Positions 5,929 through 64,000 are shown, counted from the first letter of the stretch. The stretch: DNA of 64,000 nt from Oscillospiraceae bacterium (GCA_015063885.1 SVTH01000007.1:41566-105565); one strand, 5' to 3'. The notes: generated by a model from the letters alone, not told the origin. Program-made: numbers and translations.

Positions 5929-5971
5929 ATCATCCCCTGTAACACAAGTATATTGTAGGGGAGATGGTTTT

Positions 5972-6838
5972 ATGAGGCTTTTGAAGGGGCTTGCCCCCGG
6001 GCTGCCCTTGGCGTTTTTTGCCTTCCTGCTGGCGGAGCCCGCCTTCACGGCGGAGACGGTCTTACAGCGCACGGTGTTCTTTCTTTGCAAGGTGTTTCCC
6101 ACCCTGTTTCCCGCCCTGTGCCTTTCGGGGATGCTGGCGGAGTCCCCCTGGGCGGAAAAGCTGTACAGGCTCCCCCTGGGTGCGGAGCTGACGGTTTGGG
6201 TGCTGGGGATGCTCTGCGGCTTCCCCGTGGGGGCAAAATGCGCCTTCCGCCTGTACGAAGGGGGCAGGATCACCAAACGGCGGGCGGAGCTTCTCTGCGC
6301 CTTCTCGTCCCTCGCCTCAACCCCCTTTCTCCTGGGCGTGGTTGGGAGCTCCTTGTTCGGAGATCCTGCCTTCGGATGGCTTCTTGCGGCCTTACAGGGG
6401 GTCAGCTCCCTGCTGACGGCAGGGATCCTGTATACCGTCTTCCGCCCGGGGTGGCAGGGCGTCCTTTCCGTAGGGAGAGGGAACGCTTCCTTCCTCTCGC
6501 GGATCACCTCCGCCACCCGCACCGCAGGGGAGGTGGGAGGCATGCTCATCTTCTTCGGCACGGCGGCGGATTGCCTGGAACGGCTTTGCGGCTTGGAGGG
6601 CAAGGCGGGGGTGCTGGTCACCTCCTTGCTGGAATTTTCCGCAGGCTGCGGCAAGGCGGCGGAGCTGGGAGAGGGCGGGAAGCTGCTTGCCGTCCTGGCG
6701 GTGGGCTTTTCCGGACTTTGCGTCCTGGGGCAGGTGTCCGCCGTCACCAAGGGGAAGCTTTCCCTTTTGCCATATCTGGGGGGAAAACTGATCCACACCG
6801 CCTTGATGGGCGTGCTGTTTCTGACGGTCACGGGCTGA
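5972..6838 (+). CDS. Sporulation integral membrane protein, YlbJ-like (nucleoside-recognition-domain membrane protein)
   Basis: 288 aa polytopic membrane protein next to yqfCD. The family call is by resemblance only. Confidence 0.6.
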   Translation: MRLLKGLAPGLPLAFFAFLLAEPAFTAETVLQRTVFFLCKVFPTLFPALCLSGMLAESPWAEKLYRLPLGAELTVWVLGMLCGFPVGAKCAFRLYEGGRITKRRAELLCAFSSLASTPFLLGVVGSSLFGDPAFGWLLAALQGVSSLLTAGILYTVFRPGWQGVLSVGRGNASFLSRITSATRTAGEVGGMLIFFGTAADCLERLCGLEGKAGVLVTSLLEFSAGCGKAAELGEGGKLLAVLAVGFSGLCVLGQVSAVTKGKLSLLPYLGGKLIHTALMGVLFLTVTG

Positions 6839-19875: not shown

Positions 19876-19979
19876 GGAATCCTCCTTTTTCTCCCTTTTT
19901 TGACAGTATAACAAAAAAACCGCACCTCGTCAAGATTTTCGGGACGAGATGCGGATTTTAGGGGCGAAAAGTAAAAATC

Positions 19980-20771
19980 TTATTCCTCGGGAATATAATC
20001 GGGGTAGGGGTAGAACAGCATTTTTCCTTCGGAAATACGGTATTCAAAGATCCCCACGGCACAGCCGGTAAAATAACTGTCCCCAAGCTTCACAATGGAA
20101 TTTGGGCGCGCAATGCTCCAGATCGCATTGTCGTAAAGAACGGTGGTTTCCCCGGTGTTTACGTCTACGGTGATAAGTCCCTCGGACGCGGCGATTACAA
20201 GCTTGTCGTTGTCCAAAAGAGCGGCTTTGGGAAGGATATCAAGCTCAGCCACGATTTCCAGCTTCCAGCCCTCTTCTTTCAGATCGGTGAAACGGTAGAC
20301 CGTATGAGGCATGTAGACTCCTGACAAAATATACGCCACGGGGTCTCCCATTGCTTTTTGATACAGGCCGATGACTTCTTGCCCGGTGATGACGGTCTCG
20401 GGATTGAAGATCCCTTGGGAAAGCTCACTATAGAAATTCGCAGTGGCAACCCAGCCTCCCCATTCCCCAAGAGAATCCGCGAAAAGCTGACGATAACCGG
20501 TGTATATCGAAAGAGTCGACATGGAGTCGGATGCTCCGGGGTTCAGCCAAAGCTCTCCGTGGTCTTTGCATACGTAATATATAGGCCCCTTGTAGACGTG
20601 TTCGGTATTGTAGAAAGCACGTAGCAGCATCTGTTCCTCGGTGTACTCTTCGGCCGCCAATTTGTCAAAATTTCTCCCCTTGATGTGGAGGATCTCCCCT
20701 TTTTGACAGCCCTGCAAAAGCAAGCATCCTGCTATCAAAAGAAAAACCATTGCTATCCGTAAAGCTTTCAT
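19980..20771 (-). CDS. Lipoprotein, unknown function
   Basis: MKALRIAMVFLLIAGCLLLQGC signal/lipobox. 263 aa. Start set at 20771. Confidence 0.65.
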   Translation of the reverse strand: MKALRIAMVFLLIAGCLLLQGCQKGEILHIKGRNFDKLAAEEYTEEQMLLRAFYNTEHVYKGPIYYVCKDHGELWLNPGASDSMSTLSIYTGYRQLFADSLGEWGGWVATANFYSELSQGIFNPETVITGQEVIGLYQKAMGDPVAYILSGVYMPHTVYRFTDLKEEGWKLEIVAELDILPKAALLDNDKLVIAASEGLITVDVNTGETTVLYDNAIWSIARPNSIVKLGDSYFTGCAVGIFEYRISEGKMLFYPYPDYIPEE

Positions 20772-31741: not shown

Positions 31742-32548
31742 TTACGTTTGATAGATTGCTAAAACGATCAGCTGCGAAAATCCATCTTCAACAATTTTTA
31801 CAGAATACAAAATCGCCGGCAAATTATTACAATATGATAATATCTCTGACTGAATTGTATATTCTATGCCGTCAAGCGTATCGACTCCTAAATGTTCGCG
31901 GATCTTTTCTTCCAGCAATTCATCTCGTTGGTGAGAACTTATAAAGGATTTTATAGCTGTGCTTGGGCACGCTTCTGTTTTGGAGAAACTCGTTATCGAT
32001 CCTTCGGAGTTGATAGATATTTCTACTTTGATGTTGCACATCAATTCTCGCTTGACCTGCCATACCATATAATAATTAGATGTTGAAGAATCGGGGCGTG
32101 TCATTTCGAAGTGATTGTATTGTTCAAAATTGACCAACTCAGCGAGGGTTAACTCAGCGGCTTGTTTTAACTCTTCATCAGACAGCTTATTTATATTTTT
32201 AATTGCCGGGAGTGGGCTTATGTTGGAAAAACCAATGATTTCCCCCGTTTTGGCATTTACTTTGATGCGTTTCCATGTGAGAGTGGATGATTCCTCAGCG
32301 ATTCCGTAAATGTCAAATGTATCGTTTGTCAATTTTGATTTTTTGCTAGAAAGATATATTGTGTTGTATTTTGATTGCCCGATTTGCAGGACGTAATTTT
32401 GCGTGTTGCCTTTTTCGGAAGCAACGTCTATCGATTCGCTTTCGATAACTTCGCAAGCGTAAGCATGTTGAGAACAGCCAACGAAGGAAAAAGCCGGTAA
32501 TACACCAATGATTAACAGTATTAGTGAGCGTGCTAAGTTCTTCTTCAT
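31742..32548 (-). CDS. Lipoprotein, unknown function (AT-rich islet cargo)
   Basis: MKKNLARSLILLIIGVLPAFSFVGC lipobox. Codon usage is visibly AT-rich compared with the neighbours. Confidence 0.7.
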   Translation of the reverse strand: MKKNLARSLILLIIGVLPAFSFVGCSQHAYACEVIESESIDVASEKGNTQNYVLQIGQSKYNTIYLSSKKSKLTNDTFDIYGIAEESSTLTWKRIKVNAKTGEIIGFSNISPLPAIKNINKLSDEELKQAAELTLAELVNFEQYNHFEMTRPDSSTSNYYMVWQVKRELMCNIKVEISINSEGSITSFSKTEACPSTAIKSFISSHQRDELLEEKIREHLGVDTLDGIEYTIQSEILSYCNNLPAILYSVKIVEDGFSQLIVLAIYQT

Positions 32549-32784
32549 ATTGTTTTCCTTTCTCCCTTTTTGCATCCTTGTAATTACAGTATAACAAGTA
32601 AATAATGGGCTTGTCAATAATTAGTTATATAAAAAATGTGATCTTGTTTTGTACAAGCTATACGAAAAATGTGCGAGACAAAGAAGGCCATCCTCTCCCA
32701 AATATATATGTCGTAAATTGGCAAAATGTCTATTTGAAAATGAAAAACTCCCCCGTGCTTTTTTTAAACACGGGGGAGAACTTG

Positions 32785-50034: not shown

Positions 50035-50431
50035 TTATTTTCACTCCCGAAAACGGGCTCTTATCTATTTCGGGAGACCTATTGCAAAAAGATACAAAAC
50101 CGCCGTTTGCAAAGAAAATTAGCATTTGATTGTTTATCTTTTTGTCAATCTTCAAATACAAAACTGGCTAAAATTTTCTCTGCCCGTTTTTCAAAAACGA
50201 TTTGTATGCAAAAGTGCGCCGCAACAACACAATTGTGTAAGTTTGTTTGTATGCAAACGTCGAAAAATTATTATATACTTGAACTTTCGAAGGGGCGTAG
50301 CGAAACCGATACTTGTCAATAGCGTTAGCGATACAGAAATGTATTGTTAACGCTACTTTTTTGTGCCAGAATATTGAAATTCGATATTTTTGTGGTATAA
50401 TGTATTCGTAAAAAACTATTTGGAGGTATTT

Positions 50432-50857
50432 ATGAAATCTCGACTGGTTGAATACAAGGGTGCTCTTTCCCTTTTACTGCAAAACGGGAAGATATTACTT
50501 GTCAATATCGCAGAAGCGCGCGCCTATCTAATTGATTTTAACAATCCCGACTATTCAAACGTCCCCAACAAGTTGGGTCCCGAAGAGCTTGCGATGGAGT
50601 CCTATCCCGGAGATACGGTTGCCTACGTTTGCGACGAAGGCTTTTTGCACATTGTGCACGCAGAAAAGTATAAGGAACTTCTTTCGGATAAAGAGTGCAG
50701 ATATTTAACGGTTCCGGAATTTGCGGAACGCCACGGTAGACAAATTGCTATTGTTCGCCGCATGTGTCAAAACGGAAGAATTGAGGGAGCCATCCAAAAA
50801 GGCAAAACGTGGCTCATCCCTGCAACAAGTCCGTACCCGACAGATATAAAGTCTTAA
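50432..50857 (+). CDS. Small protein with a C-terminal excisionase/MerR-type HTH
   Basis: RYLTVPEFAERHGRQIAIVRRMCQNGRIEGAIQKGKTWLIP. GGAGG RBS. Promoter TTGAAA-N16-TGGTATAAT at 50374-50401. Confidence 0.7.
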   Translation: MKSRLVEYKGALSLLLQNGKILLVNIAEARAYLIDFNNPDYSNVPNKLGPEELAMESYPGDTVAYVCDEGFLHIVHAEKYKELLSDKECRYLTVPEFAERHGRQIAIVRRMCQNGRIEGAIQKGKTWLIPATSPYPTDIKS

Positions 50858-50881
50858 TATAAGTCTCAATGAGGTTTCAAC

Positions 50882-51457
50882 ATGGAAGAATGCTCACGTT
50901 TTAACCGCGCCATCGATTTTCATCCACTCTGTAATCCTCCCCTTAGAAAAGGAACTTGTTTTCCTACCTTATCATCCTTGAAACTTGAGCTTCGAAAACA
51001 GCGAAAGCATCTTTTGGGTTCTCACATTTCTTTACGTTCGTTCGTCTGCGATAACAATGGAGTAAACGAGGCTCTAATCGAGAAAATGTGCGACGTCCTC
51101 TCCGGATACACGCTTCTGTTTTGGATATACAGAAACAAAAACGCCGAGGAGTTTTGCCATCATTTTTACGACATAGTTATTCATTCCCTTACCTACGAAC
51201 ATTTGCGTGACGAATCTGTTGACGACATAATTGAGCTTGCCGGATGCCTATCTTTTTCTAAAGATGTTTTTGAAACCGTGATTAAGGAACTGATGCCCCC
51301 GGATAGAATCGGAGATTTGTTCTACTTCACGGAATCGTACGATGCAGCATTCTATACATCCGCCTTTGCTGATGCTGTGTTGGGCGCTGTATCTGTCTTT
51401 TTAGGAGCATTGAAGAATCCCATAGCGGAGAACTCTGGTAAGGAGGAGCACGTATGA
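50882..51457 (+). CDS. Hypothetical protein
   Basis: 191-aa ORF in an operon. Its stop overlaps the next start (ATGA). Confidence 0.6.
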   Translation: MEECSRFNRAIDFHPLCNPPLRKGTCFPTLSSLKLELRKQRKHLLGSHISLRSFVCDNNGVNEALIEKMCDVLSGYTLLFWIYRNKNAEEFCHHFYDIVIHSLTYEHLRDESVDDIIELAGCLSFSKDVFETVIKELMPPDRIGDLFYFTESYDAAFYTSAFADAVLGAVSVFLGALKNPIAENSGKEEHV

Positions 51458-52776
51458 GTTTGATTTACGACCAAGCCAGAGTTATCCTGCGTTCCGACGG
51501 AAGCGTACATATTGGTTTCCGAAGCAAGAGAACTATTTTCGCTACTGCGGAGAATATTCTTGCTTTGTTCGCCGACCCCAACGAGTTTGTCGAAACCGGA
51601 TATCTCTCATACGAAGATTCCACTTTCATTGCCAACCGCAAAGAATTTGAGTTGCGGGATATGTTGGGTTTAACCTTAGCAGCCGTTACCAACGACAAGC
51701 AAATCGTTTGTCATTTCCCCGAACTCTTCCGATATATCAATATTGCATGTTCCTCTGCTGAAACGAAAAATGCCCATTTGAATATGACGGATTTTGCATT
51801 TGAAGAGGTTTTGTCCGACGAGAAATCTTTCTTACTGAGGCACTACCTTGAACTTGCAGGAAGCGTGCGGGCTCCTTTGACCATCAAAAAGAATATTCAG
51901 CTGAGGGACGAGGTTCAGTTCGCAATCATTCGAGAAATTCTCAACGCCTTTTTTGACGAGGAGCTTCCCGAGCCCAAATCGTCAGATGACATTTCGAAAC
52001 GTATTGAAAACATACAGCAGGCATCTCTTTTGAAAAAGGAAATGGTTCCCGACGAAGAGTATGTAACCGTTCTTCAGTATGCGCAAATACATAATTTATC
52101 TGAGAATGCCGTACGAAGCCATTTGAAAGCCGGACATATAGCCGGTGCTAAACGAAACGAACGGGGACGTTGGTTGATTCCAAGGAACGTACAACCGGAA
52201 TCTCCCAATATGCTTATCGGCAGAACAAGGAAACAAAAAAACGAAGAAAAGGCTTATAGACGTCCGGCAAACGGCAGTGCCGCAGATGTGGAGGCGCACA
52301 TTATCAAGCAACGGCTGTTCACACACGCGATTGCTCCGTTTATACATACTTTCCAGGAGCTGGATTACTATACCAAACGAAGCTATCACGAGGTTAGGTG
52401 GAACGGACGCCCTTGCTTAATTATCGATGTCAATCCGGATTATCGGTGTACCATCGATAACAAAACCAATCGGGAGCGAATGATGGCAGGAGAAGCGCCC
52501 AGAGTGCCTCAAAAAAACAAAGAGGACCGCAGCTTTGACCTCCATCACGTAGGCAGAAACGCCGCTTCTCCCTTCGCTTGTATTCCGGATTACGACCACA
52601 ACGGCTCCGGTTTTTCCTCTATTTTTCATCAGGGGTCTCACGATAAAAATTTGCATGATACCGTCTTTGCCGGTGACCGCAAGCAATTTTGGCAGACCTA
52701 TATCGAAGAGTACGATAAGGCCGGAAGGTTTGAAAAAATTCCGTATTTGAATCCTCGCGCTAAAAGAAAGAAATAG
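51454..52776 (+). CDS. Multidomain protein: unknown N-terminal region, central excisionase-type HTH, C-terminal LHH-type HNH/EndoVII nuclease-like domain
   Basis: HTH: YVTVLQYAQIHNLSENAVRSHLKAGHIAGAKRNERGRWLIP. Nuclease-like: SFDLHHVGRN...IPDYDHNG..FH. Confidence 0.65.
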   Translation: MSLIYDQARVILRSDGSVHIGFRSKRTIFATAENILALFADPNEFVETGYLSYEDSTFIANRKEFELRDMLGLTLAAVTNDKQIVCHFPELFRYINIACSSAETKNAHLNMTDFAFEEVLSDEKSFLLRHYLELAGSVRAPLTIKKNIQLRDEVQFAIIREILNAFFDEELPEPKSSDDISKRIENIQQASLLKKEMVPDEEYVTVLQYAQIHNLSENAVRSHLKAGHIAGAKRNERGRWLIPRNVQPESPNMLIGRTRKQKNEEKAYRRPANGSAADVEAHIIKQRLFTHAIAPFIHTFQELDYYTKRSYHEVRWNGRPCLIIDVNPDYRCTIDNKTNRERMMAGEAPRVPQKNKEDRSFDLHHVGRNAASPFACIPDYDHNGSGFSSIFHQGSHDKNLHDTVFAGDRKQFWQTYIEEYDKAGRFEKIPYLNPRAKRKK

Positions 52777-52781
52777 TTTCT

Positions 52782-54752
52782 ATGGGACGAAAAAAGAAAG
52801 AAACGTTCACAACAGAACTGGAAGCTCGGAAACAAGACCTAATGAGACGATTTGCCGACGAATCACCCTTGATAAGGGATAGCCTGGTTAAGGATTTGCC
52901 GGCTTTTAACGCAGTGTTAAATATCCACGCCGAATCGTTCGAAGAAATCGCTTTGCGGTATCTGGCTAAGCGGCTAGACATTGCTTACAATCCGCAGAAA
53001 CCGCCCACTCCCCCTTGTCCGTTTTGTCACCAAACTGATACGGTAGGTAGAAAAACAGGGTTCATGTTCCGTTGCAAGCATTGCGAGAAAACCTTTTCTG
53101 CTACCCATGAAAGTATCGCTTCTGGAACAAAATGCGATGCGTTAACCTGGATGAAGATTTTGCAGAGCCTTTTAAATAATGTCAGTATCACCCAAACCTG
53201 CGAATACTGCGGAATATCGGAAAACACTTATTACAACATTCGGAACAGATTGTTTTACGCAATGTCTATTTTGCTAAAGGAATTGAGGCTGTACGGGAAC
53301 ATCGAAGTAGATAACACCTTTGTCCGAGTCAGTTACAAGGGAGTCAATTTGCAAGAAAGCGAATTTCCGGAGGACAGCATCTTTTTTGACGATACTTTTA
53401 AGCCGCGAGCTGCTAGGGACCGAGGCAGCGCGGTGCCATCGAGCGTAAAAAATGCTAATCACATCTGCATTTTCACCGGTATCGATGACCGGGGGCACGT
53501 TTTGGCTCGGTTTGTGGGCGTGGGAAACATCAGCTATCTTTCGTTGAAGCATTACATCCCGTCAGAGCTCTTCCTTTCTCAGGTGCCTCAAACAGACCCG
53601 TTTGCACTGGCTAAAAAGCAACGCAAGGATAAAAAAGAGCCCGAGACAAAGCCGTTGCAAAAGTCCAGGATAATTGCGGACAAAGAGGGGGCTATCCAGC
53701 GTTACGCCCAAACGCTCGACGTTGAATTCGAGTCTCACGTATATCGAAAGGACGGCATCCAGCGCCGATTGTCCAAGGATGCTTTGGGCATCCAACACGT
53801 TAACGCCCTGCATCGCCGTTTGAAAACCTTTCTTCGGATGCATGGATACATGTCTTCTAAATACCTTCCTGGTTTTTTAACGCTGTTTGAGTTTGTAGAA
53901 AACACGCGAGCCTCTCAGGAAGCAATCGCCGAATTGTTTCGGATTATTGCCTGCCCCGGCTTAGGAAAACCGCCTTCATTTTTCAAAAACATGTTTACGG
54001 TTCCCAACTACCTCGTGGAGTGGTTGCATAGCGAGCATCCTCTGAAGAAACTACCGCACAACAAAATGCTTGCGTTTTACATGATGGATATCATGAAGCA
54101 TCCGGACCTGTATCCGGATGAAAAGGTTACCATGGCGCAAATCGAGGAGGAAACCCAATATACGGCTCCAACAATTCGCAAAATATATCGAGAGCTCAAT
54201 GACGCCGGATACCGAGACTTGATTATTCAGTACTTCTCTCCTTCGAAGAAAAAGAAGGAGACGGAGAAACAAGGAAAGAAAAAGGCGCCTGCGCCGACCA
54301 CTATCAATCCAACGGTCCTTGCTATTTACGATGCGTATGCCGAGGTATGTAAAATCCCCCAGTGGAAACGGCCAACCTTCGAGCAATTCTTGGCAGAGAA
54401 AAACAAGGAGCTTAACACCAATTACAAACGAACCAACATGATGGCGAAATTCAAGTACATACAAAACAGCGGGTTGAGGCAGCCATTCGAAAAGCGTAAC
54501 AAGGAAGAGCCACGCGACTTAGCGTTTGAATTGCTTCGCGCTTATGAGGAACTGAGAGCGAGTTATCAGGAAAAAGGCGAACCATTGCCTCGTGTGGAGA
54601 GCATGACTGCCACTATTGGGGAGCGATATAATGTGTCTGCTCATACTGTTAAAGCTCAGGTTTCAACCGCCAGAGCTTATTTAAGCCGGCAAAGAGAACT
54701 TGATGCGCAATCCGAGACTACAGCGACGGTTGAGGCAGAGAACAAAAATTAA
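52782..54752 (+). CDS. IS1595-family (ISXO2-like) DDE transposase homolog with an N-terminal zinc ribbon and a ~250-aa C-terminal extension; operon-embedded
   Basis: CPFC..(N15)..CKHCEKTFSA zinc ribbon. IEVDNTF (D), IIADKEG (D), HVNALHRRLKTFLR (N..K), matching the DDNK arrangement of IS1595. No terminal inverted repeats seen. Confidence 0.65.
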   Translation: MGRKKKETFTTELEARKQDLMRRFADESPLIRDSLVKDLPAFNAVLNIHAESFEEIALRYLAKRLDIAYNPQKPPTPPCPFCHQTDTVGRKTGFMFRCKHCEKTFSATHESIASGTKCDALTWMKILQSLLNNVSITQTCEYCGISENTYYNIRNRLFYAMSILLKELRLYGNIEVDNTFVRVSYKGVNLQESEFPEDSIFFDDTFKPRAARDRGSAVPSSVKNANHICIFTGIDDRGHVLARFVGVGNISYLSLKHYIPSELFLSQVPQTDPFALAKKQRKDKKEPETKPLQKSRIIADKEGAIQRYAQTLDVEFESHVYRKDGIQRRLSKDALGIQHVNALHRRLKTFLRMHGYMSSKYLPGFLTLFEFVENTRASQEAIAELFRIIACPGLGKPPSFFKNMFTVPNYLVEWLHSEHPLKKLPHNKMLAFYMMDIMKHPDLYPDEKVTMAQIEEETQYTAPTIRKIYRELNDAGYRDLIIQYFSPSKKKKETEKQGKKKAPAPTTINPTVLAIYDAYAEVCKIPQWKRPTFEQFLAEKNKELNTNYKRTNMMAKFKYIQNSGLRQPFEKRNKEEPRDLAFELLRAYEELRASYQEKGEPLPRVESMTATIGERYNVSAHTVKAQVSTARAYLSRQRELDAQSETTATVEAENKN

Positions 54753-54804
54753 CCTCTCTGCCAAGAGGTTAAATTATAGATTTCGTGTTTTTTCGTTTTC
54801 CCTC

Positions 54805-54833
54805 TTGATTTTTACTGCGTTGCGTGGTAAAAT
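54805..54833 (+). promoter_or_regulatory. Promoter TTGATT-N17-(TG)GTAAAAT
   Basis: Read directly. Lies downstream of the hairpin TTAACCTCT..AGAGGTTAA that follows the DDE gene. Confidence 0.65.
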
Positions 54834-54839
54834 ACAGTC

Positions 54840-55053
54840 ACTGCAAGCGAACGGCTTGTAAATATACGCCAGACGTTGGCCAGGGTAAGACGCTATCAAT
54901 CGGCTCCCTTGAATGGGGCGTAGCTTACATGTGAGCCAACCTACTGAAATAGTAACAGCGCTGATTTAGGATTGAGTTTACAACTCTGAGTATTTGGCTG
55001 TGCGCTCGGAAACATAGATGCCATGAAACGTCTTATACGGTTGACGTTTTTTT
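54840..55053 (+). ncRNA. Candidate ~215-nt structured non-coding RNA (unknown class)
   Basis: Bounded by the promoter above and the terminator AAACGTC-N10-GACGTTT+T7. Has several internal hairpins and no credible ORF or RBS. Confidence 0.5.
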
Positions 55054-55095
55054 GGTGTGCTTGTTTCCAATCTCAAAAACATATTTATGGTTTCA

Positions 55096-55127
55096 AGCCC
55101 GATGGCATCTATGCTGTCGGGCTTTTT
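55096..55127 (+). terminator. Second terminator hairpin; its loop is complementary to 55013-55024
   Basis: AGCCCGA-N14-TCGGGCT+T5. ATGGCATCTATG (55102-55113) is the exact reverse complement of CATAGATGCCAT (55013-55024). Confidence 0.65.
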
Positions 55128-55213
55128 GTCGTTCGTATGCAGGGAAAGGAGGCACGATGCATCGCAGCGCAAATATGTATGCGCCCCACAAAAAGGATGA
55201 GGAATAAGGAAGC

Positions 55214-55771
55214 ATGAGCATTATAAGCAAAATCAAAGCCTTCTTTTCCGTAGGCGGAAACCAATTCTCATTGGACCTCAAATCTGCGGAAGTAAGGCAA
55301 GACAGGACGTTTTTACATCCTGCCGACAACGACAACGTGACTTACGTGGTAAAGGCAAGCAACGTACAGCTTCTTCTGAACGACGGAGAAGACATAGCAC
55401 CGGAGGATTTTATGGTGGTGGAAGGAGCCGTTGACCCGGCTACGAAGCCTAAGATTTTGCCTCCTACGACCCCGAAACCCCGTGGGCCCCAAACGCCGGA
55501 TTGTTTGCGGACACCGCGAGACCCCGAAGATACTCCGCCGCACCTTACCAAACGGAAAATCACCTTTACTGTCTATGAAGACGAGTTTTCTCTCATAAAC
55601 AGGTTGGTTAAGGAATCCGGATACAAACGCTCAATATTTTTCGTGGCTTGTATCCAGAACTCGCAGAAGAAGTCTGTGGCAGGTAGCTTATCCGTAGAAT
55701 GCAACCGCGTGCAAAAATCTTTAGAAAGGAGAGAGCAGGAGCAAAAAGAACGATTGCTGACTGACCGATAA
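55214..55771 (+). CDS. Protein with a Pro-rich linker and a C-terminal ribbon-helix-helix (MobC-like) domain
   Basis: KRKITFTVYEDEFSLINRLVKESGYKRSIFFVACI resembles RHH/MobC-type domains. AAGGAAG RBS. Confidence 0.6.
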   Translation: MSIISKIKAFFSVGGNQFSLDLKSAEVRQDRTFLHPADNDNVTYVVKASNVQLLLNDGEDIAPEDFMVVEGAVDPATKPKILPPTTPKPRGPQTPDCLRTPRDPEDTPPHLTKRKITFTVYEDEFSLINRLVKESGYKRSIFFVACIQNSQKKSVAGSLSVECNRVQKSLERREQEQKERLLTDR

Positions 55772-55842
55772 TACGTTATTTGTCAGGGACGCAATCACTC
55801 ATTCGTACATTTATATCTTATTTACTACAAAGAGGTGCAAAA

Positions 55843-57441
55843 ATGAAGAGAATTCGTTACCATTCCGCAACGGAGCTTTTGGAAAAGGCGCGCCAAAAGA
55901 TGGTTCCGTTGCCGAACCAATGGGCGGCACAGAAGAGGATTGCGTCCCTAATTGCCATGCACTTGAGCAAGCTGCAAGCCCTTGATAAAGGCGCAGACCC
56001 GGGGGAGCTGGTCAGCTGCTCGGCGTTCTTGGTTGGTCCCACCGGCAACGGGAAGACCTACATCATCAAATGTCTGGCAGAGGCCTGCGGTCTGCATTTC
56101 GCTGCCATTGACTGCACGTCCATCACCCAGGCAGGTGTCCGTGGGAAAAATCTGGGAGACAATCTGGCCGCCATCAAAAGCGAGAACCCTGCCTTTTTCG
56201 AGGGTGGAATTCTTCTCTTGGATGAAGCAGACAAGGCGTTCTACAAAGGCGACCCGCACTACGATGCCTACTCGCCGATGCAGGAATTTTTGAAGCTGAT
56301 GGAGGGCGGGGAGTACTCCTTCCGGTCGGATGGCATAAGTGGAACCGTCAATCTGGATAAGACCCTCATCCTATTGGCGGGCGCTTGCGCCAACATCGTA
56401 CATATTCTAAAAAGGCGGTACAATCCGCGCCCCGTCATTGGCTTTTCGTCGCAAAGCCCCGGGTCTGAGATTGACATTGAGAACTACGGCCCGTACGTCA
56501 CCCTTGATGACCTGATTGCTTACGGCATGATGCCCGAGCTTGCCTCTCGTATCAACACAGTCATTGCGATTCCCAAAATTGACGAGGCAGGGTATCAGCG
56601 GTTACTTATCGACACCGCTAAGACATCTGCGTTGAATCGTTTTCGCAATCAGTTCGCCATGCGGGGTGTCGCACTGGATATCGCTCCCGAGGCGGTTCAA
56701 AGGATTGCCGAACTGTGTGTTGAGAGAAACGTGGGGGCTCGCTCTATCAACGCCATTCTCTTCGAGAAGCTTTCTGAGGCTTACAGCGCCGTAGACGATA
56801 CCCCAACCCACGGCAGAGTCATTCTTCAAACAGACGAACTTGGAGAACTCCAAACAGTGTATCAGGAGGGGGAGCGTCTTTCCTTCCCGATGTTCACGGA
56901 ACGAGCCTGCTTTGATGGGGATTTCTCCATCAAGGACAAACTCCGGGATGAAGACTCCATCAATCGACTTTGCGATGATATATGCGCAAAGGCGTCCTTG
57001 GAAGACGTGTCTGCCGAGCCATTACTCTATTACTTCCTGCAAACAGCGTGTCGCTACATGGCGGAGGAGGTTCGCCCGGAGGACAGGAGCATGGTCAACC
57101 TATGCAGGCTCGCTGGCGCCACGGAGAAACCGGATAGTTCTAAAGCCGGTAAGTCTCCCTTTGACATCGTCTGCGAGGACTACCTTTTGAAAATCATCTC
57201 CAAGGCGGAGGACAGTTTGAAGCACCAAGAGGAGGAAGCTCCTCTGTCGCGTGTATCGAAAAACCGGATGTGGGCGACCTCCAAAGACCATTTCAAGTAC
57301 GCCATTTTTAATCATTATTACTCGGCGTTCTGCCGGACGGAGAGACAGCACGCAGACGTACCAAAGGTGTTGGCGGAAGCCATCGATACTGCAAGGAAAC
57401 ATTACATATCCAATAAAAAAGAAAAGAGCAGCACTATATAA
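55843..57441 (+). CDS. ClpX/HslU-like AAA+ ATPase lacking the zinc-binding domain, with a ~180-aa C-terminal extension
   Basis: Walker A GPTGNGKT, Walker B ILLLDEADK. PELASRIN...IPKIDEAGYQRLL and VGARSINAIL align with ClpX sensor and arginine regions. Confidence 0.75.
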   Translation: MKRIRYHSATELLEKARQKMVPLPNQWAAQKRIASLIAMHLSKLQALDKGADPGELVSCSAFLVGPTGNGKTYIIKCLAEACGLHFAAIDCTSITQAGVRGKNLGDNLAAIKSENPAFFEGGILLLDEADKAFYKGDPHYDAYSPMQEFLKLMEGGEYSFRSDGISGTVNLDKTLILLAGACANIVHILKRRYNPRPVIGFSSQSPGSEIDIENYGPYVTLDDLIAYGMMPELASRINTVIAIPKIDEAGYQRLLIDTAKTSALNRFRNQFAMRGVALDIAPEAVQRIAELCVERNVGARSINAILFEKLSEAYSAVDDTPTHGRVILQTDELGELQTVYQEGERLSFPMFTERACFDGDFSIKDKLRDEDSINRLCDDICAKASLEDVSAEPLLYYFLQTACRYMAEEVRPEDRSMVNLCRLAGATEKPDSSKAGKSPFDIVCEDYLLKIISKAEDSLKHQEEEAPLSRVSKNRMWATSKDHFKYAIFNHYYSAFCRTERQHADVPKVLAEAIDTARKHYISNKKEKSSTI

Positions 57442-57517
57442 TGCTACAAAACTTAGGAGGAGAAGCACACATCAGCCATCAATTTCCCCAAACAACCAAA
57501 CTTAAGCACGACAACGA

Positions 57518-57702
57518 TTGAAAAAATATGACGTTAGTTGTATACTGCGTACGCTACACAATTCTAATCTACAGTTGTCGGGAACCACTTTGGTAAAAGG
57601 TGCGTTCTCTTTTCGTCATACCCGGCAACTGGTACGAATTGTGTAGCAACAATGAGGAGAGCACTTTTTCGGTGTGCTCCCTCGTTGGAGCACACTTTTT
57701 TT
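57518..57702 (+). promoter_or_regulatory. Promoter plus riboswitch-like structured leader with alternative antiterminator/terminator
   Basis: TTGAAA-N17-TATACT. Nested helices GCTACACAATTC/GAATTGTGTAGC and AGTTGTCGGG/CCCGGCAACT. GAGCAC..GTGCTC overlaps the terminator GTGTGCTCC..GGAGCACAC+T7. Confidence 0.55.
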
Positions 57703-57727
57703 ATTCTCAAGAAAGGGACACCTAAGT

Positions 57728-59155
57728 ATGAACACCAAAAAAATGAAGAAACTGTGTTTTGCCGCTACAGCTTGCTTGCTATTCGCCTTCGTTACCCTGT
57801 TGGCAAGCTGTGCTCCGGATAACACTCCCGCCTCCTCTTCTGCGGAAAGCTCGAACAACGAAAATTCCGAGTTATCCAAACACGAAAGCACTATCTCTGA
57901 CGAAAGTTTTTCGCCATCATCCTCCGAAACCGAATCCGGCTCCTCCTCAGATGCTTCCGACGAGGAATCTTCTGAGCCTTCCGATGACATTTCAACAGAG
58001 CCATCGGCTTCTCCGGAAGAATCCGATGTCACATCTTCACAAGACAATTCACCGGAACCCTCCAGCGAACCCGGCGAACAGGAGAACTCAGAAGACATCT
58101 CAGAGCCTCCTGTACACGTGCACGAATGGGAAGAAGCCGATTGCGAAAACCCAAAAACCTGCGTGACGTGCGGCGAGACGACCGGCACTGTCGCAGGACA
58201 TGATTGGCAGATTGCTACGTGCACGTCTGCTAAGACCTGTGCGACCTGCGGAAAGACCGAAGGCTCTGCCAAGGGCCATAATTGGAAAGCCGCCACCTGC
58301 GTCTGTGCTAAGACCTGCCAGGTCTGTGGGGCAACCGAAGGGGAAGCCAACGGACACGATTGGCAAGGGGCCACCTGCACAATCGCAAAAACGTGCAAGA
58401 CCTGTCAACAAACAACCGGCAACGCGAACGGTCATCAATATCTCGACGGCGTATGTGAAACATGCGGTGAAAGGGACCCTGACTACCAAGAACCGATTAC
58501 ATATTCGCAAGGTTTGGCCTATCAAGTAAATGAAGATGGAAAAACCTGCTCGGTCAGTATCGGAACGTGCACCGACGCTGACATAAGCATCCCGCCGACA
58601 ATCGACGGATATATCGTTACTGAAATTGGCGAAGATGCCTTTGCAAACTGCGCAAACATAACAAGCATCACCATTCCGGATAGCGTGACCACTATCTCTT
58701 ATTATCCCTTTGCACGTTGCCCAAATTTGGTTTTTACGCAATACGAGCAAGGGCTATATTTAGGAACCAGCACCAATCCATACCATGCATTGGTGGGGAT
58801 TGCCTCTGATGACACGGGTTCTGTCGTTTCGTTTAAGGTTCACGAAGATACTAAGTGTATTGCCGACAACACGTTCGGCGGCTGCTTTAATATGGTGAGC
58901 ATCGAGCTTCCGAATGGCATAACTCGTATTGGACGCCGTATGTTCGAAGACTGCGAAAGATTAGAAAGCGTGCACGTGCCCGGCAACGTGACACAGATTG
59001 CAGCTGGAGCATTCCAGGGTTGCCGCAACTTAGAGCGTGTAACCTTTGAAGGAACGGTAACCCAGTGGGACGTCATCACCAAGGGCAATTTCTGGAACGA
59101 CAACGTTCCCGCCGCCGAAGTGGTTTGCTCTGATGGCACTGTGAGTCTGGCGTGA
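57728..59155 (+). CDS. Lipoprotein with an S/E-rich linker, four Cys-rich ~24-aa repeats and BspA-type leucine-rich repeats
   Basis: Lipobox LLASC. Repeats GH.W..ATC...KTC..CG.T.G at about 58112-58474. LRR segments (ITSITIPDSVTTI..., ITRIGRRMFEDC...). Confidence 0.75.
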   Translation: MNTKKMKKLCFAATACLLFAFVTLLASCAPDNTPASSSAESSNNENSELSKHESTISDESFSPSSSETESGSSSDASDEESSEPSDDISTEPSASPEESDVTSSQDNSPEPSSEPGEQENSEDISEPPVHVHEWEEADCENPKTCVTCGETTGTVAGHDWQIATCTSAKTCATCGKTEGSAKGHNWKAATCVCAKTCQVCGATEGEANGHDWQGATCTIAKTCKTCQQTTGNANGHQYLDGVCETCGERDPDYQEPITYSQGLAYQVNEDGKTCSVSIGTCTDADISIPPTIDGYIVTEIGEDAFANCANITSITIPDSVTTISYYPFARCPNLVFTQYEQGLYLGTSTNPYHALVGIASDDTGSVVSFKVHEDTKCIADNTFGGCFNMVSIELPNGITRIGRRMFEDCERLESVHVPGNVTQIAAGAFQGCRNLERVTFEGTVTQWDVITKGNFWNDNVPAAEVVCSDGTVSLA

Positions 59156-59226
59156 ATTTCCAGCTTCTGCTCACCATGACGCAAAAGCAATAGTCTTAAG
59201 AGCACACAATAAAATGGAGCACGTAT

Positions 59227-60168
59227 ATGAAAGAATTTTACATAGTTGACCTGGTCAAGAATCTGGTACACAACAAGAATCTCTTTGCGTTGACGTATCT
59301 GTTTTTGAATCTCTTCGTGGTTTGCGGGTTGTTTTTCGTGTTATTCGGCGAATCCTTTGCCGGCGTTATAATAGGATTGGTTATATATCTGATTTCGGCA
59401 TTGATTGGTCTGTCTCCCGTGGGGGAATGGTTCTTACGGCGTTCACACAAATGCATTCCCATAGAGCGTTATGAGGACCGAAGCGCTGGGAAACGGCTTT
59501 CTGCGCTTTTTGGCGAGGTTTGTTCTTCGGCTGATAAAAGCGGCATTTCTGTACGTGAGAAGGAGAAAATCTCTCTTTTTATTCACGAGGGCGATGACCT
59601 GAACGCCTTTGCGATTGGTCGCAAAACCATTTGCGTAACGAGCGCACTTTTAGAACTTCCTGATGATGAAATCAAAGCCATCTTCGGGCATGAGCTGGGG
59701 CATCTGACTACGCACGATACGGACTTGGTGCTCCTTGTCTCGGCAGGTAACTTTATCGTTTCTGCCATCGTGACAGTTTTCAAACTGTTCGTTATGCTTT
59801 TCCAGCTGATAGTTACTATCGCAATCGCTTTCTGCGGAGACGAGGGAGCGATAGTTAACGTCTTCACGAAAGTTGCGAGCTTCCTCTCGCTGGTTCTGGT
59901 TAACTTCGTGATGTTCGTTTGGACGAAAATCGGCATTTGGATGGTAATGAAAACCTCCCGTAATGCAGAATTTGAAGCAGACGCCTTTTCCTGTCGCCTT
60001 GGCTACGCCGACGGTTTGCTTTCATTCTTCCAGAGGATATATAATGACGAACCGACGTATAGCGTGAAAAAGGGCTCCGACCTCTTTGCTGCGCTTTCGG
60101 ATTCCCATCCCGCGACAGCCCACCGGGTACGGAAGGTGGTTGAATACGTGAAGCGTACGACAGTGTAA
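59227..60168 (+). CDS. M48-family (HtpX-like) membrane zinc metalloprotease
   Basis: HELGHLTTHD (HEXXH), four TM helices, downstream E...D motif (NAEFEADAF). Confidence 0.8.
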   Translation: MKEFYIVDLVKNLVHNKNLFALTYLFLNLFVVCGLFFVLFGESFAGVIIGLVIYLISALIGLSPVGEWFLRRSHKCIPIERYEDRSAGKRLSALFGEVCSSADKSGISVREKEKISLFIHEGDDLNAFAIGRKTICVTSALLELPDDEIKAIFGHELGHLTTHDTDLVLLVSAGNFIVSAIVTVFKLFVMLFQLIVTIAIAFCGDEGAIVNVFTKVASFLSLVLVNFVMFVWTKIGIWMVMKTSRNAEFEADAFSCRLGYADGLLSFFQRIYNDEPTYSVKKGSDLFAALSDSHPATAHRVRKVVEYVKRTTV

Positions 60169-60259
60169 CACGGATACTTGTTAGTCGGCGAAACGAACCA
60201 CCCCTAAAGATATTGCAAGCAAAAACAGGGCCGATTGCAACTCTACTTTCCCACTCCCG

Positions 60260-60343
60260 TTTTGACATAAAAACCCATTTTGCTTCATTTTCCTGTAAAA
60301 AATAGCGCCAGCTTGATTGAAAATGGGATTTTTATGTCAAACG
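60260..60343. repeat. Long imperfect hairpin (22-bp stem, 38-nt loop)
   Basis: TTTTGACATAAAAACCCATTTT ... AAAATGGGATTTTTATGTCAAA(C). One bulged base. Confidence 0.8.
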
Positions 60344-60384
60344 TTCTCTCTGAAAATCCAAAAAATGCCCCGAAAGGATTGACT

Positions 60385-60802
60385 GTGCGCCCAGCATGGG
60401 CGATAACTTGGTGGAGAAAGTCCACTATACGCTCAGTAGCAGGAAGTGTTAGCCGAAGCAAGGGTGTACATCGCAAGGTGGAATCCGAAGGAAGCCGTGT
60501 CGAAAGGCAGCGGTTGAGCTCGCAGAAGTCAGCTCCACTCGTAGTACCAAAGGAGTGACTAGCCACCACGAAGGGAGGGAAGAAGTTGTGTGAAATTAAA
60601 GTCGAAAGATTGTGCTTGAAAACAGTTGCTCTGCAGAGATTGAATGACTGAGGGTAGGTTGGGAACCGAGAGTCGAAGTCAAGAGTGTTTAGCAATCATC
60701 AAAAGAGGAGTCGCAAGCGACGACTTATCGAAGCACCGCGTACGGTTCCGTACGCACGGTGTTGCGGGAGGACGGGGGGAGTCGCCCCCCCACCAGCCCG
60801 AT
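60385..60802 (+). ncRNA. ORF-less group II intron-like ribozyme, class C (IIC)-like, ~418 nt
   Basis: 5' GTGCGCCCAGCATGGGCG. Domain I-like GTTAGCCGAAGCAAGGGTG...GGAATCCGAAGGAAGCC. Domain V AGCACC-GCGTACG-GTTC-CGTACGC-AC-GGTGTT at 60732-60763 (AGC triad, AC bulge). A G6/C6 domain VI-like hairpin with an unpaired A. No room for a reverse-transcriptase ORF. Confidence 0.75.
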
Positions 60803-61342
60803 TGGCGTTTTTTCTTCGTCACACTTCATGCGCACCTCATACTCGCTCGACTTCTGTTGCTTTTTATCGGATGGCAATCTTTCAAAAAACAACCATCGGC
60901 TTTTTATAAGTGGAGGGATTTCTACAGAACTCTTTCGACCATCTGCTCGTGCTGTCTATTAAGAGCCGGGGCATAAGAAAATTGCCATTGTCGCAAGGTC
61001 TGATATATTTCGCAACAAACTTATGGTATAATCCAGCATTCGTATAATATAGCAAAATACGTTTCGATAAAGTTTCTTAAAACAGGTGATTTTTTGTCAA
61101 AAAAACACAAAAATGAAAAAAATGGTCAGCGCCTATTGAAAACGAAAAAGTATTATGATAAAATAGTACATCTGGTGTTATATCGTGAAGCAACTCAAAT
61201 ATACATAAAATTACACTTTAGCACAGGCTTCGACAATATGGGGTCGAAGATGTTGTCCAAACGAAAGTTCCTGTCTAACCGGTGTCTTTCTAAAACAACA
61301 TCTCTGCATTTGTGCAGCCATGAGCAAGATTGTGAGGAGAGA

Positions 61343-61924
61343 ATGAATTTACCTGCTATTGAAGTCGCGAAATACCTTATACGTTTGTATTTTCAGTCGA
61401 GTATTCGATATCATTGCACATTGACAAAAATTGAGAAGCTGATGTTTATTGCAGAATTGGTATGTTTAAAGAATGATGCCAGTCTATTTTCCGAAGATAT
61501 TTTAGACAAGAATTGTGGTGTCGGGATTGACGGGTTGGAGCTCGAGTTGCCAAACGAAATTTTAAATATTCGGGAACAAAACCAAGACAATGACACAGGC
61601 GAAACGGATATCCCCATTGGAGATGTTACATTTTGCGGAAATTCTGTTCCGGATTTGTTTCAAATTGGCGCGGATATTTCGTTTGAACCGTCTGTTGAAC
61701 GTTTGTTGGTTGATGTATTCAGATATTTTGGGAATTATAAAGCGAGAACATTGGGTAGTCAAATCGATGAACTTAAGCCTTACATAATCAGAACCTTAGA
61801 CCCGTTGACCCAAAACAAAAGCATCGACAGAAGTATAATCAAAACCGGCTTTGATACTATTCCAGTCTCAAAACTCGAGAATAATGAAATTTATATCTTC
61901 GCAAAAAACATTAAGGAACTTTAA
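61343..61924 (+). CDS. Hypothetical protein with weak Panacea/DUF4065 (SocA-type antitoxin)-like N-terminus
   Basis: AIEVAKYLI...CTLTKIEKLMFIAELV resembles the (A)KYFL..ITNLKLQKLLYYAQ motif. GAGGAG RBS. The listed 61094 TTG start was rejected. Confidence 0.5.
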   Translation: MNLPAIEVAKYLIRLYFQSSIRYHCTLTKIEKLMFIAELVCLKNDASLFSEDILDKNCGVGIDGLELELPNEILNIREQNQDNDTGETDIPIGDVTFCGNSVPDLFQIGADISFEPSVERLLVDVFRYFGNYKARTLGSQIDELKPYIIRTLDPLTQNKSIDRSIIKTGFDTIPVSKLENNEIYIFAKNIKEL

Positions 61925-61927
61925 ATT

Positions 61928-63046
61928 ATGGCTACTTGTTCCGCCAACGATTCTCTCTTGAAATTTTGCAATTGCGTCTTTGAAGTTATGGATACCTGTT
62001 CTTCAATTAGTGAATTGCCAAAGTGTTGCAAAGATTTTATTGACACATGCTACGTTTCGTTCGGAGAAATCAACCAGCGCTTTGATGCCGCAGCGTACTT
62101 GTCGCTATCTCTTTACATAGATGAATTATTCAACAAGCAAATAAACACAGATATTCGTGACAAAAATGTTTCTACTTTAAGATTTGATACCGATAGTTTG
62201 TACGACATGACTTTGTTCATGGAGGAATACTGCAAAGCCAATCAAATTTGCGATTTTCCCAAAACCATTTTAGAGGACATTTGTTCATTGATTCTTCAGC
62301 GGTTTCGCTCTTTCAAGAATATGGTTCTTTACTCTCAAAATGTGGCTAATAAGCAGTCTAGGGCGCATGTTGCCTCTATGACTCGTATTGTTGAATCTCG
62401 CCAGAACGAGTTGCTGAAACAAATTGACACTCGTTTTAAAGACACACAACAAGCAGTCGATGTTTTGGAAAGCGAACTGGCGGCTCGGGAAAAAGATGCG
62501 CATGACCATAGCATTACTATTCTTGGTGTTTTCTCCGCAATTGTCTTAGTTTTTAATGCAGCAGTTAGTTTTTTTACGTCTGCATTTGGTGCATTCAGCA
62601 ACGCCAGTATATATAAAATACTGACGATTCTCTTGATTATCGGCGTGATTTTTGTTGGCGCAATGATGGGGCTGTTTTTCTATCTTGATAGAATTCGCCC
62701 TTCCGACAAATTCGAGTTTCTTAAGAACAAAAAAGAGAAGCAATCCTCAAGTGAAATGATATATGTTGTAGATAAAGCCGAAAGCGGCGTTAGAATATTA
62801 AAACTGCTTTTGCCTTTTTTGATTACATTAGTGATATTGATAATAATGCTTCTTATCGTTCTTTACTCGTGGGAAGTAGGCTTAGTAGAGGCAAGGAATC
62901 AATCTCTTTTTGCACAAGAATCTAAAACGGATTCTGAAACGGGTTTTGAAACGGATTCTGAAACGGATGTAGTAACATCCATTCAAGAAGAGTTGTCGCA
63001 GCCGGAAGACGAATCTGAAGAGACAACTTCTGCAATTGCCGAATGA
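61928..63046 (+). CDS. Membrane protein (coiled-coil region, 3 TM helices, acidic tail), unknown function
   Basis: 372 aa. Starts 4 nt after the previous stop, suggesting coupling. Confidence 0.6.
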   Translation: MATCSANDSLLKFCNCVFEVMDTCSSISELPKCCKDFIDTCYVSFGEINQRFDAAAYLSLSLYIDELFNKQINTDIRDKNVSTLRFDTDSLYDMTLFMEEYCKANQICDFPKTILEDICSLILQRFRSFKNMVLYSQNVANKQSRAHVASMTRIVESRQNELLKQIDTRFKDTQQAVDVLESELAAREKDAHDHSITILGVFSAIVLVFNAAVSFFTSAFGAFSNASIYKILTILLIIGVIFVGAMMGLFFYLDRIRPSDKFEFLKNKKEKQSSSEMIYVVDKAESGVRILKLLLPFLITLVILIIMLLIVLYSWEVGLVEARNQSLFAQESKTDSETGFETDSETDVVTSIQEELSQPEDESEETTSAIAE

Positions 63047-63070
63047 CAAGTAAAACTATCTTTCAAAATA

Positions 63071-63234
63071 TTGACAAAGCATCCCGAATATGGTAATATA
63101 CCCCTGTAATCCAAATAAAGTAGGTACGAAGCATGAAGGAAAGGTGTTTAAGCTCCGCACCGTATAAGCCAATCAATCGAATCAAACAAATTTTTAGCAC
63201 GAGGTTGCCCCAAGGGGTCATCTCGTGCTTTTTC
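63071..63234 (+). ncRNA. Candidate small RNA with its own promoter and terminator
   Basis: TTGACA-N17-(TGG)TAATAT. Terminator AGCACGAG..CTCGTGCT+T5. Only an 11-codon ORF lies inside. Confidence 0.45.
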
Positions 63235-63323
63235 GTTGTCCGCAAACAACAGGATAGGTCAGGCTTGTCACCTTGCCCTATTTGACATAGAAAAACAAAA
63301 AATAAAATAAGGAGATTTACGCT

Positions 63324-64000
63324 ATGAAAACCACGACAACCAGACTTTTGTCAGTGCTTCTCTGCCTTGCCATGATTTTCGTGACTATTCCTCATTCAAT
63401 CCTGGCGCAGATTTCCGAAACACTGAACGACACCACTGATGCCGAAGCAACCGAAACGGTTGCCCAGGACGTTTACGTCCTCGGCGAGGTCATCGACAAC
63501 CGAACCGAAACCAGCAAGACCTTCCGCATGTCAGACGGCAGCTTCATTGCCGCCGATTACGGACAGGTCATCCATTACGCTGGAGAAGACGGCACATGGA
63601 CCGATTACGACAACACCCTGACCTTCTCCGAAGCGTCTGCCAGAGATGTCGACGATATGGCGGGGTACGGCAATACCGGTTCCGACCTTCGCATCAAGCT
63701 GGCGAACAACTCCAACTCCAACAACCTTGTGAAGCTCACCATGGGCAACTACAAAATCAGCCTGCACCTGGTAGGCGCAGACAAGAGCAAGGCGTTGGAA
63801 GTTTATCCCGCTATGGAAGACCCGGAGGGCAACGACATTGACTCCGCGGCTACCCTTCATAAATTCTCTTCTGGTGCTATCTATGAGGATATCCTGCCCG
63901 ACGTGGACCTGGAATACATTATTTCCGGTGGCACCGTTAAGGAAAACATCATCATCAAGGATACCGCCGACAGCTATACGTATACCTTCGAGCTGAAACT
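63324..64000 (+). CDS. N-terminus of a large secreted RHS/wall-associated polymorphic-toxin-type protein (runs off the window)
   Basis: Not in the ORF track because there is no stop. Hand translation gives MKTTTTRLLSVLLCLAMIFVTIPHSILAQ...NRTETSKTFRMSDGSFIAADYGQVIHYAGEDGTWTDYDNTL. GGAG RBS. Confidence 0.65.
   Translation, partial: MKTTTTRLLSVLLCLAMIFVTIPHSILAQISETLNDTTDAEATETVAQDVYVLGEVIDNRTETSKTFRMSDGSFIAADYGQVIHYAGEDGTWTDYDNTLTFSEASARDVDDMAGYGNTGSDLRIKLANNSNSNNLVKLTMGNYKISLHLVGADKSKALEVYPAMEDPEGNDIDSAATLHKFSSGAIYEDILPDVDLEYIISGGTVKENIIIKDTADSYTYTFELK

Follow-up and report, generated by a model that had tools for sequence, protein, structure and literature searches.

The four-gene operon at positions 50432-54752 (plus strand) of a 64,000-nt stretch of DNA from an Oscillospiraceae bacterium (GCA_015063885.1 SVTH01000007.1:41566-105565; this whole stretch is referred to as the window and its positions are 1-based) almost certainly forms the left-end module, conserved among relatives, of an IS1595-family DDE transposon that moves in nature and whose insertion has an 8-bp stagger. 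The operon consists of genes A to D, of which C encodes a protein with an LHH/HNH nuclease domain and D an IS1595-type DDE protein, while two further genes, T and P, belong to the opposite end of the element. Whether C and D are direct components of the transposition reaction is a separate matter, on which we judge the chances to be evenly balanced.

The element is bounded by left and right terminal inverted repeats (IRL and IRR), both of which are flanked by the 8-bp target-site duplication CGAAAACG. Its right end was read not from the window but from an overlapping contig (L014; loci and contigs used for comparison carry L numbers) that was found through one of the cargo proteins, shows 0 mismatches over the 12,073 nt of window 51928-64000 and extends 9 kb further. 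In these coordinates the element is 22,455 bp long, running from window 50056 to about 72510, with the right copy of the duplication ending at composite coordinate 72518, and the right junction is identical in three contigs from three samples. The host gene beyond the right end encodes an immunoglobulin (Ig)-like surface protein. Pattern scans of a metagenome collection that does not seem to include these contigs gave no empty site, but one was located via the flanking CotF-like gene: in a related genome, L021 (GCA_045589515.1), the CotF-like gene is followed directly by the Ig-like gene and a single CGAAAACG lies between the homologous flanks. The G+C content drops from ~56% to 47% at 50 kb (element 47%, host 56%). 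Homology with L006, which lies at another chromosomal site and encodes a D protein 89% identical to that of the window, begins at window 50046-50056 and continues patchily to the window end, indicating that the island begins ~380 bp 5′ of gene A and runs out of the window. The left end is made up as follows.

50048-50055: 8-bp target-site duplication, left copy, CGAAAACG; also found directly behind the right repeat (L014 20584-20591) and, once, in the L021 empty site
50056-50091, plus strand: IRL, 36 bp, beginning GGCTCTTATCTATTTCGGGAGAC; 33/36 positions match the reverse complement of L014 20548-20583
50092-50319, plus strand: subterminal non-coding region with the short repeats TTTGTATGCAAA (twice) and ATACAAAAC (twice), seen in the sequence
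50320-50355, plus strand: operator-like palindrome TAGCGTTAGCGATACA-N4-TGTATTGTTAACGCTA, seen in the sequence
50374-50401, plus strand: sigma-70-type promoter of the A-D operon, TTGAAA-16-TGnTATAAT, 11/12 positions agreeing
50432-50857, plus strand: gene A, 141 amino acids (aa), an N-terminal domain and an Xis/MerR-type winged helix-turn-helix (wHTH), from profile matches
50882-51457, plus strand: gene B, 191 aa, without a known domain (no profile match)
51454-52776, plus strand: gene C, 440 aa, with an N-terminal domain (1-170), an Xis-type wHTH (~200-250) and an LHH/HNH nuclease domain (338-417), from Pfam and Foldseek
52782-54752, plus strand: gene D, 656 aa, with a zinc ribbon, a helix-turn-helix (HTH), an RNase H-like DDE core to ~380 and a helical extension (380-656), from Pfam, NCBIfam and a structural model
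55095-55124, plus strand: terminator-like hairpin 3′ of the operon, seen in the sequence

The operon starts 376 bp inward of IRL, and the intervening repeats TTTGTATGCAAA and ATACAAAAC may be protein-binding sites. GGAGG lies 8 nt 5′ of the ATG of gene A, the ATG of C and the stop codon of B share 4 nt, and D begins 5 nt past the stop codon of C. The initial annotation, made from the window sequence, had described four tightly coupled genes under one strong promoter and this description stands, as does the overlap of the 51454 start with the preceding stop. It had also reported no flanking inverted repeats, which is correct for the surroundings of gene D alone (we likewise found none there, and this rules out D as an ordinary insertion sequence), whereas the pair that matters lies 22.5 kb apart with its right member outside the window. 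The embedding of D in an operon and the lack of repeats immediately around it would fit a domesticated transposase serving the host chromosome; this is scarcely credible now that D is seen to sit within a mobile element that has terminal repeats and a target duplication and for which an empty site is known, with 47% G+C against 56% for the host, and with relatives at unrelated loci that include an integrative and conjugative element (ICE)-like region and the inside of a sigma-factor gene. The empty-site comparison refutes domestication. The alternative offered in the same annotation, a non-canonical mobile element, was right in spirit.

A co-occurrence search, which the annotation had proposed as a check, showed that the gene set recurs. 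D-bearing loci could be resolved into 11 distinct cases (the window, L001, L003, L005, L006, L007, L008 and L010-L013), and C lies immediately 5′ of D in 11/11, the D proteins being 33-95% identical. Their common layout is IRL–A…(B)–C–D…cargo…P–T–IRR, with three strict rules: A stands beside IRL, C beside D, and T-P beside IRR (L005 has cargo between A and B-C-D). A, C, D, P and T thus make up the core, to which B may be added, and the elements that share it measure 12-22 kb and occupy unrelated sites. In three relatives the ends could be followed in detail.

L005: perfect repeat of 28 bp, beginning GGCTGTAGTTCATTTTAGGAGAC; target-site duplication ACAAAAAT; element of 12.7 kb
L007: perfect repeat of 23 bp, GGCTGTATTCTACTTTAGCGTAC; target-site duplication GTCTTGAC; element of 11.8 kb
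L001: repeats of the same type at both ends; duplication not read; element of ~13.3 kb within an ICE-like region

The raw repeat matches were 29 bp (L005) and 26 bp (L007), of which the outermost 1 and 3 bases, respectively, belong to the target duplications. Each of these three elements has A...C-D inside the left end and P and T reading inward at the right end. The repeat type has the tip GGCTSTAWTCTACTTTAGGRGAC, and the pattern GGCT[GC]T...GAC recurs at the tips in L001, L003, L005, L007, L010, L011, L013 and L028; left repeats of this type lie 5′ of A in L003, L010, L011 and L013, and one lies 5′ of T in L028. When proteins are ranked by similarity to those of the window, A, C, D and T all give L001 >= L005 > L007 (P varies by two points among these three), and this shared ranking indicates that the genes diverged together. 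The settings differ widely: L001 lies in an ICE-like region with TraG and PcfJ, L003 next to spoIIGA, L006 beside a sortase-pilus cluster, L007 between a cation-efflux gene and nrdR, and L008 among phage-like genes. The family is rare, and all loci with a named organism come from uncultured Clostridia (Eubacteriales, Oscillospiraceae).

Several further observations concern the ends and targets of these elements. In L003 the IRL (GGCTGTAATTTACTTTAGGGGAC), from position 5978, begins within an open reading frame (ORF) for a 127-aa sigma-70 region-2 protein (5602-5985) directly 3′ of spoIIGA (Peptidase_U4), so that a sigE-like sporulation sigma-factor gene seems to have been disrupted by the transposon. 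Directly before the true left end of L001 there is a ~105-bp miniature resembling a miniature inverted-repeat transposable element (6610-6714), in which IRL is joined to IRR, and at 19975-20013 of the same locus the right tip AGATTACAGCC is partly duplicated; together these suggest ends that are used in trans or acted on repeatedly. The motif CCCGAAAACG is present at the left flank of both the window element (50044-50055) and L006 (7256-7265), a relative 88% identical at a different locus. As these two loci have the same 10 bp at the left flank we considered site-specific recombination at a CCCGAAAACG core as a general mechanism, and rejected it: three elements differ in their 8-bp duplications and the empty site holds one copy. 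The left flank CTCCCGAAA mirrors the inner repeat part TTTCGGGAG and is already there in the empty site, and in eight elements the 8-mers at the left flank show a loose fit to CNWWWWNG; this may reflect a preference for targets that resemble the repeat. Identity as a prophage or satellite was also rejected, there being no family relatives in IMG/VR and no structural genes in the window element.

Profile and fold searches, likewise proposed in the initial annotation, placed D among the IS1595/DDE proteins. Residues 117-376 match the NCBIfam IS1595 transposase model (E = 4e-20, 72.5 bits; cut-off 75), a CxxC..CxxC zinc ribbon occupies 79-101 and Pfam finds HTH_23 at 122-156. The motifs EVDNT, IIADKEG and VNALHRRLK, read earlier as hallmarks of the family, are all there, with key residues invariant or nearly so: in a 43-sequence alignment of D, residues C79, C82, C98, D177, D235, D300, Q338 and N341 are invariant and C101 and H344 nearly invariant. 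We collected 84 full-length relatives of ~650 aa with 33-95% identity. When 1.84 billion representative proteins were searched, those of the D type stood apart as some 45-57 clusters, separated by a score gap from ordinary IS1595-like proteins. Full length in these clusters and with its Cys4, D177, D300 and N341 kept, D is, on the strength of these alignments, under selection. The AlphaFold model (predicted local distance difference test score, pLDDT, 83) shows the zinc ribbon, HTH and RNase H-like core and an all-helical extension from 380 to 656; the long C-terminal region seen in the initial annotation is real, at about 280 residues. The best fold matches of D are DDE transposases and integrases (ISCth4, retroviral integrases, Mos1 and Sleeping Beauty), with weak E-values and match probabilities of 0.95-0.99 for the top integrases and ~0.5 for Mos1 and Sleeping Beauty. 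In a set of 72,556 plasmids it is the D core alone (~82-386) that finds relatives, at 24-26% identity, and their annotations name ISSag10, ISCaje5 and other IS1595 transposases.

At the other end of the element T (377 aa) and P (236 aa) are both encoded on the minus strand, reading inward, just inside IRR and ~8.5 kb past the window end. T scores 111.5 bits on NF033547 (IS1595 transposase; range 109-133, cut-off 75) and also matches NF050000, the zinc-binding domain of the IS1595 family; as judged from these matches T is a true, canonical IS1595 transposase. In P the N-terminal 120 aa are conserved and the C-terminal part has a weak, sub-threshold WYL match, and comparison of P with PDB sequences gave no match. 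D and T align across the zinc ribbon, the HTH and the whole catalytic core with about 23% identity (E = 2e-22), sharing the invariant positions D177/D163, D300/D261 and QHVNA[LM]H; D differs in its longer N-terminus, a ~25-aa insertion in the core and the 280-aa helical tail. D and T are thus, from this alignment, paralogs that have both kept their catalytic residues, and both look catalytically competent.

With two such enzymes in one element, D might be a second, alternative transposase acting on the ends that T uses, or a former partner now retained for some different reason; the element would then have arisen by fusion of two IS1595-type modules, and C would be unrelated to the activity of D. 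The DNA-binding N-terminus and catalytic core common to D and T, and the position of each beside one end, reading inward, are what such a history would leave. We nevertheless regard it as improbable: every element has a single inverted-repeat pair, with no inner repeats found around T-P or A-D, the coupling of C to D is invariant, and D and T remain distinct proteins (~23% identity) in all elements.

In C, residues 338-417 match Pfam LHH (PF14411) with E = 5.5e-11 and 42.9 bits (cut-off 23.3), and the LHHVG..DHNG motif on which the domain had first been recognized is there. H364, H365, H382, H392 and N339 are invariant across 43 C homologs (47 relatives were collected), from which we take the nuclease site to be kept. 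The N-terminal domain (1-170) is as conserved as the nuclease part and matches nothing known. Foldseek superposes the wHTH of C on the winged helices of Xis, BldC and MerR, with template modelling (TM) scores of 0.65-0.77 over 40-50 residues, and in a whole-protein search only this wHTH was matched; against PDB sequences C gave a weak colicin-DNase match, and all else that turned up for C and D was zinc-ribbon/HTH noise. In polymorphic toxins, too, LHH domains are found, and the last ~100 residues of C match above threshold with the conserved His kept; unlike those toxins, C has its LHH domain fused to a conserved N-terminal domain and a DNA-binding wHTH and is always encoded directly 5′ of a transposase paralog. 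C is followed by D, not by a small ORF of immunity type, none of its neighbours was identified as immunity-like, and C matched no secretion-related family in Pfam/NCBIfam profile scans (signal peptides are outside the reach of that scan). The LHH domain is thus probably not used here as a polymorphic-toxin tip.

The nuclease domain bears on the proposal, also made in the initial annotation, that the quartet is a defence or toxin-antitoxin-like addiction module carried as cargo, with the LHH nuclease as toxic effector. LHH domains are typically toxin tips (Pfam description), further conflict genes, among them one for an RHS toxin, are present in the element, and PADLOC gave weak matches (mad1, E = 0.016; PDC-S64, E = 8e-5) confined to the HTH/zinc-ribbon parts. 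No PADLOC match to a defence system was significant, however, the genes are a universal, co-diverging core of the family whereas true cargo varies between elements, D is a paralog of the element's own transposase, and the family was not found in viral contigs, all of which makes a defence or addiction role quite doubtful.

The excisionase-type HTH is weak by Pfam in both A (E = 0.006) and C (E = 0.025), HTH_17 being below the cut-off, but PHROGs matches, Foldseek and the homology of the two domains to each other (hhalign profile-profile, probability 96%, E = 1.6e-9) agree with this earlier assignment. A was found in 10/11 of the distinct D-bearing loci, L012 being the one without a detected A, and wherever IRL was located A is the first gene after it. 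B, for which scans of Pfam, NCBIfam, PADLOC and PHROGs gave no domain match, is present in 5/11 (the window, L001, L005, L006 and L010), directly 5′ of C in the latter four. The wHTH fold of C, a domain also present in A, is that of Xis proteins and recombination directionality factors (lambda Xis, Pukovnik Xis, RdfS; MerR/BldC-type); unlike these, A and C carry extra domains, and neither the window element nor L007 has a tyrosine or serine recombinase that an Xis-type protein could partner, or indeed any other recombinase. The T-P operon has its own strong inward promoter (TTGACA-17-TACAAT, 11/12 positions agreeing), overlapped by a GTAGCG..CGCTAC palindrome, and a related palindrome lies just upstream of the left A-D promoter. 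Palindromes at both promoters suggest that one DNA-binding protein controls both operons, the candidates being A and P.

These features are also what one might expect if C and D (with A and B) belonged to the transposon but served to regulate or protect it, through repression or target immunity mediated by the DNA-binding domains of D, or through the cutting of vacated sites so that repair restores the element, and did not carry out its chemistry. T looks self-sufficient, D has its 280-aa helical, HTH-rich extension, A and C share the same Xis-type wHTH, and operator-like palindromes mark both promoters. A precedent for transposon-encoded retention nucleases is given by TnpB/IscB in IS200/IS605 elements (bioRxiv 10.1101/2023.03.14.532601). 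A pure regulator would not, though, need catalytic Asp residues, and those of D are invariant over 33-95% identity; it is hard to see how an HNH nuclease equipped with a general wHTH could recognize many different empty sites, and an Rfam scan of 49-64 kb gave no RNA family and no guide RNA. A purely regulatory or retention role therefore seems to us rather unlikely.

In the mechanism that we prefer, all the roles in which we infer from sequence, T, probably together with D, would bind the repeats through their common zinc-ribbon/HTH N-termini, and T/D would carry out 3′-end cleavage and strand transfer across the 8-bp stagger. D would be a second, specialized transposase subunit, which is its most likely role because the catalytic D-D-N/H residues are kept. 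The LHH nuclease of C would make the cut in the other (5′) strand at each end and thereby free the long element as a clean double-stranded piece, and since the two genes are 5 nt apart C would be made in fixed proportion with D. A, through its Xis-type wHTH, and P would act on the ends and on the two promoters with operators, shaping or regulating them. In Tn7 the TnsA nuclease cuts the second strand for TnsB, and TnsA-like second-strand cutting is our best guess, by analogy, for the roles of C and D. A heteromeric transposase so built, of paralogous T and D with an HNH/LHH nuclease for the second strand, would be of a kind not yet described and would mean that the TnsA/TnsB one-enzyme-per-strand solution had been arrived at independently; we put it forward tentatively, as a possible arrangement.

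Several points weigh against this reading. T has the look of an IS1595 transposase complete in itself, one protein is enough to move simple IS1595 elements, and nearly the same repeat is found at both ends, so that two different end-binding subunits are not obviously needed. The score of D falls slightly under the NCBIfam cut-off. L005 has a small serine resolvase gene right after A (2967-3572), which would fit cointegrate resolution and a replicative pathway rather than cut-and-paste. T-P elements without C-D may exist, the sequences of L028 and L029 ending short of the far end.

Among IS1595-family elements the closest comparison is with those that carry passenger genes. MTnSag1 and tISCpe8 are reported to have an 8-bp duplication and ~25-bp repeats (PMC5704250). 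Like MTnSag1/ISSag10 and tISCpe8 (the 'tIS' class), the present family combines a zinc ribbon, HTH and ISXO2-type DDE domain with terminal repeats (~25-36 bp), an 8-bp duplication and passenger genes. It is unlike them in length (12-22 kb against 1-2 kb), in its five to six conserved genes in place of one, in having two paralogous DDE proteins at opposite ends, and in the conserved LHH nuclease and Xis-type HTH proteins. Elements of the IS1595 family reach up to about 7.5 kb. The transposase type, terminal repeats and 8-bp duplication of the window element are those of the family, whereas its layout is not the compact single-transposase one. It is therefore an IS1595-family member by enzyme, ends and duplication that departs from every described member in size, number of core genes, paired DDE paralogs and LHH/Xis-type proteins. 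Our literature search found neither a paper in which IS1595 is paired with an LHH/HNH partner nor one on this architecture.

The likeness to Tn7 (a large cargo transposon with a multi-protein core, a separate nuclease gene beside the DDE gene and possibly one enzyme per strand) is an analogy only. There is no homology; the nuclease here is HNH/LHH and not restriction-enzyme-like, the DDE protein is IS1595-type and not rve-type, and the duplication is 8 bp where that of Tn7 is 5 bp. Pfam/NCBIfam scans found no TnsA-type nuclease, rve-type TnsB or TnsC AAA+ family, and the core holds no AAA+ regulator or target selector.

IS1595 elements count as simple insertion sequences with a single gene, and little is known about their chemistry. 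The present family consists of 12-22 kb transposons of gut and rumen Clostridia whose cargo includes RHS toxins, surface proteins and restriction-modification genes. If C and D do act in the reaction, transposition here would run on machinery of a new kind, which might serve as a scaffold for engineering large inserts into genomes, and a heteromeric transposase would explain how an IS-type enzyme moves 12-22 kb by clean cut-and-paste. Even without C and D in the chemistry, the family explains the spread of islands without integrases and corrects the annotation of operons labelled 'hypothetical'.

The remainder of the window element is taken up by cargo, all on the plus strand.

55214-57441: genes E (185 aa, no assigned function) and F (553 aa, ClpX-like AAA+), accessory or cargo genes outside the family core
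57674-63046: an LRR_5 lipoprotein, an M48 peptidase, two uncharacterized proteins and a ~900-bp non-coding stretch
63324-64000: 5′ part of the gene for a 2093-aa RHS-repeat toxin, cut by the window end; this gene and the ORF that follows it lie in L014 11397-18349

F was seen only in copies of this element and in the close relative L006, and E had in addition one short weak match in L008. F (55780-57441) gave no match to the zinc-binding N-domain of ClpX, and L029 has a different AAA+ cargo gene. Host ClpX remodels the Mu transpososome, and by analogy a link of the ClpX-like F to transposition is conceivable. The RHS/YD-repeat protein is followed by an overlapping 224-aa ORF, and L006 has a similar RHS gene at the same position; the RHS protein and the 224-aa ORF are likely to be a toxin-immunity pair. 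The ~900-bp stretch (60169-61093) has no convincing ORF or Rfam match and contains a 21-bp inverted repeat, 86% complementary (60261-60281/60321-60341). Within a 372-aa ORF, positions 62925-62972 consist of head-to-tail repeats of a 12-nt AAACGGATTCTG-like unit and encode an acidic ETDSETGFETDSETD stretch. In the host region of the window, unrelated to the element, a patch of low G+C content (42-47%) at 31742-32617 holds a 291-aa lipoprotein-like ORF adjoining a tyrosyl-tRNA-synthetase-like gene.

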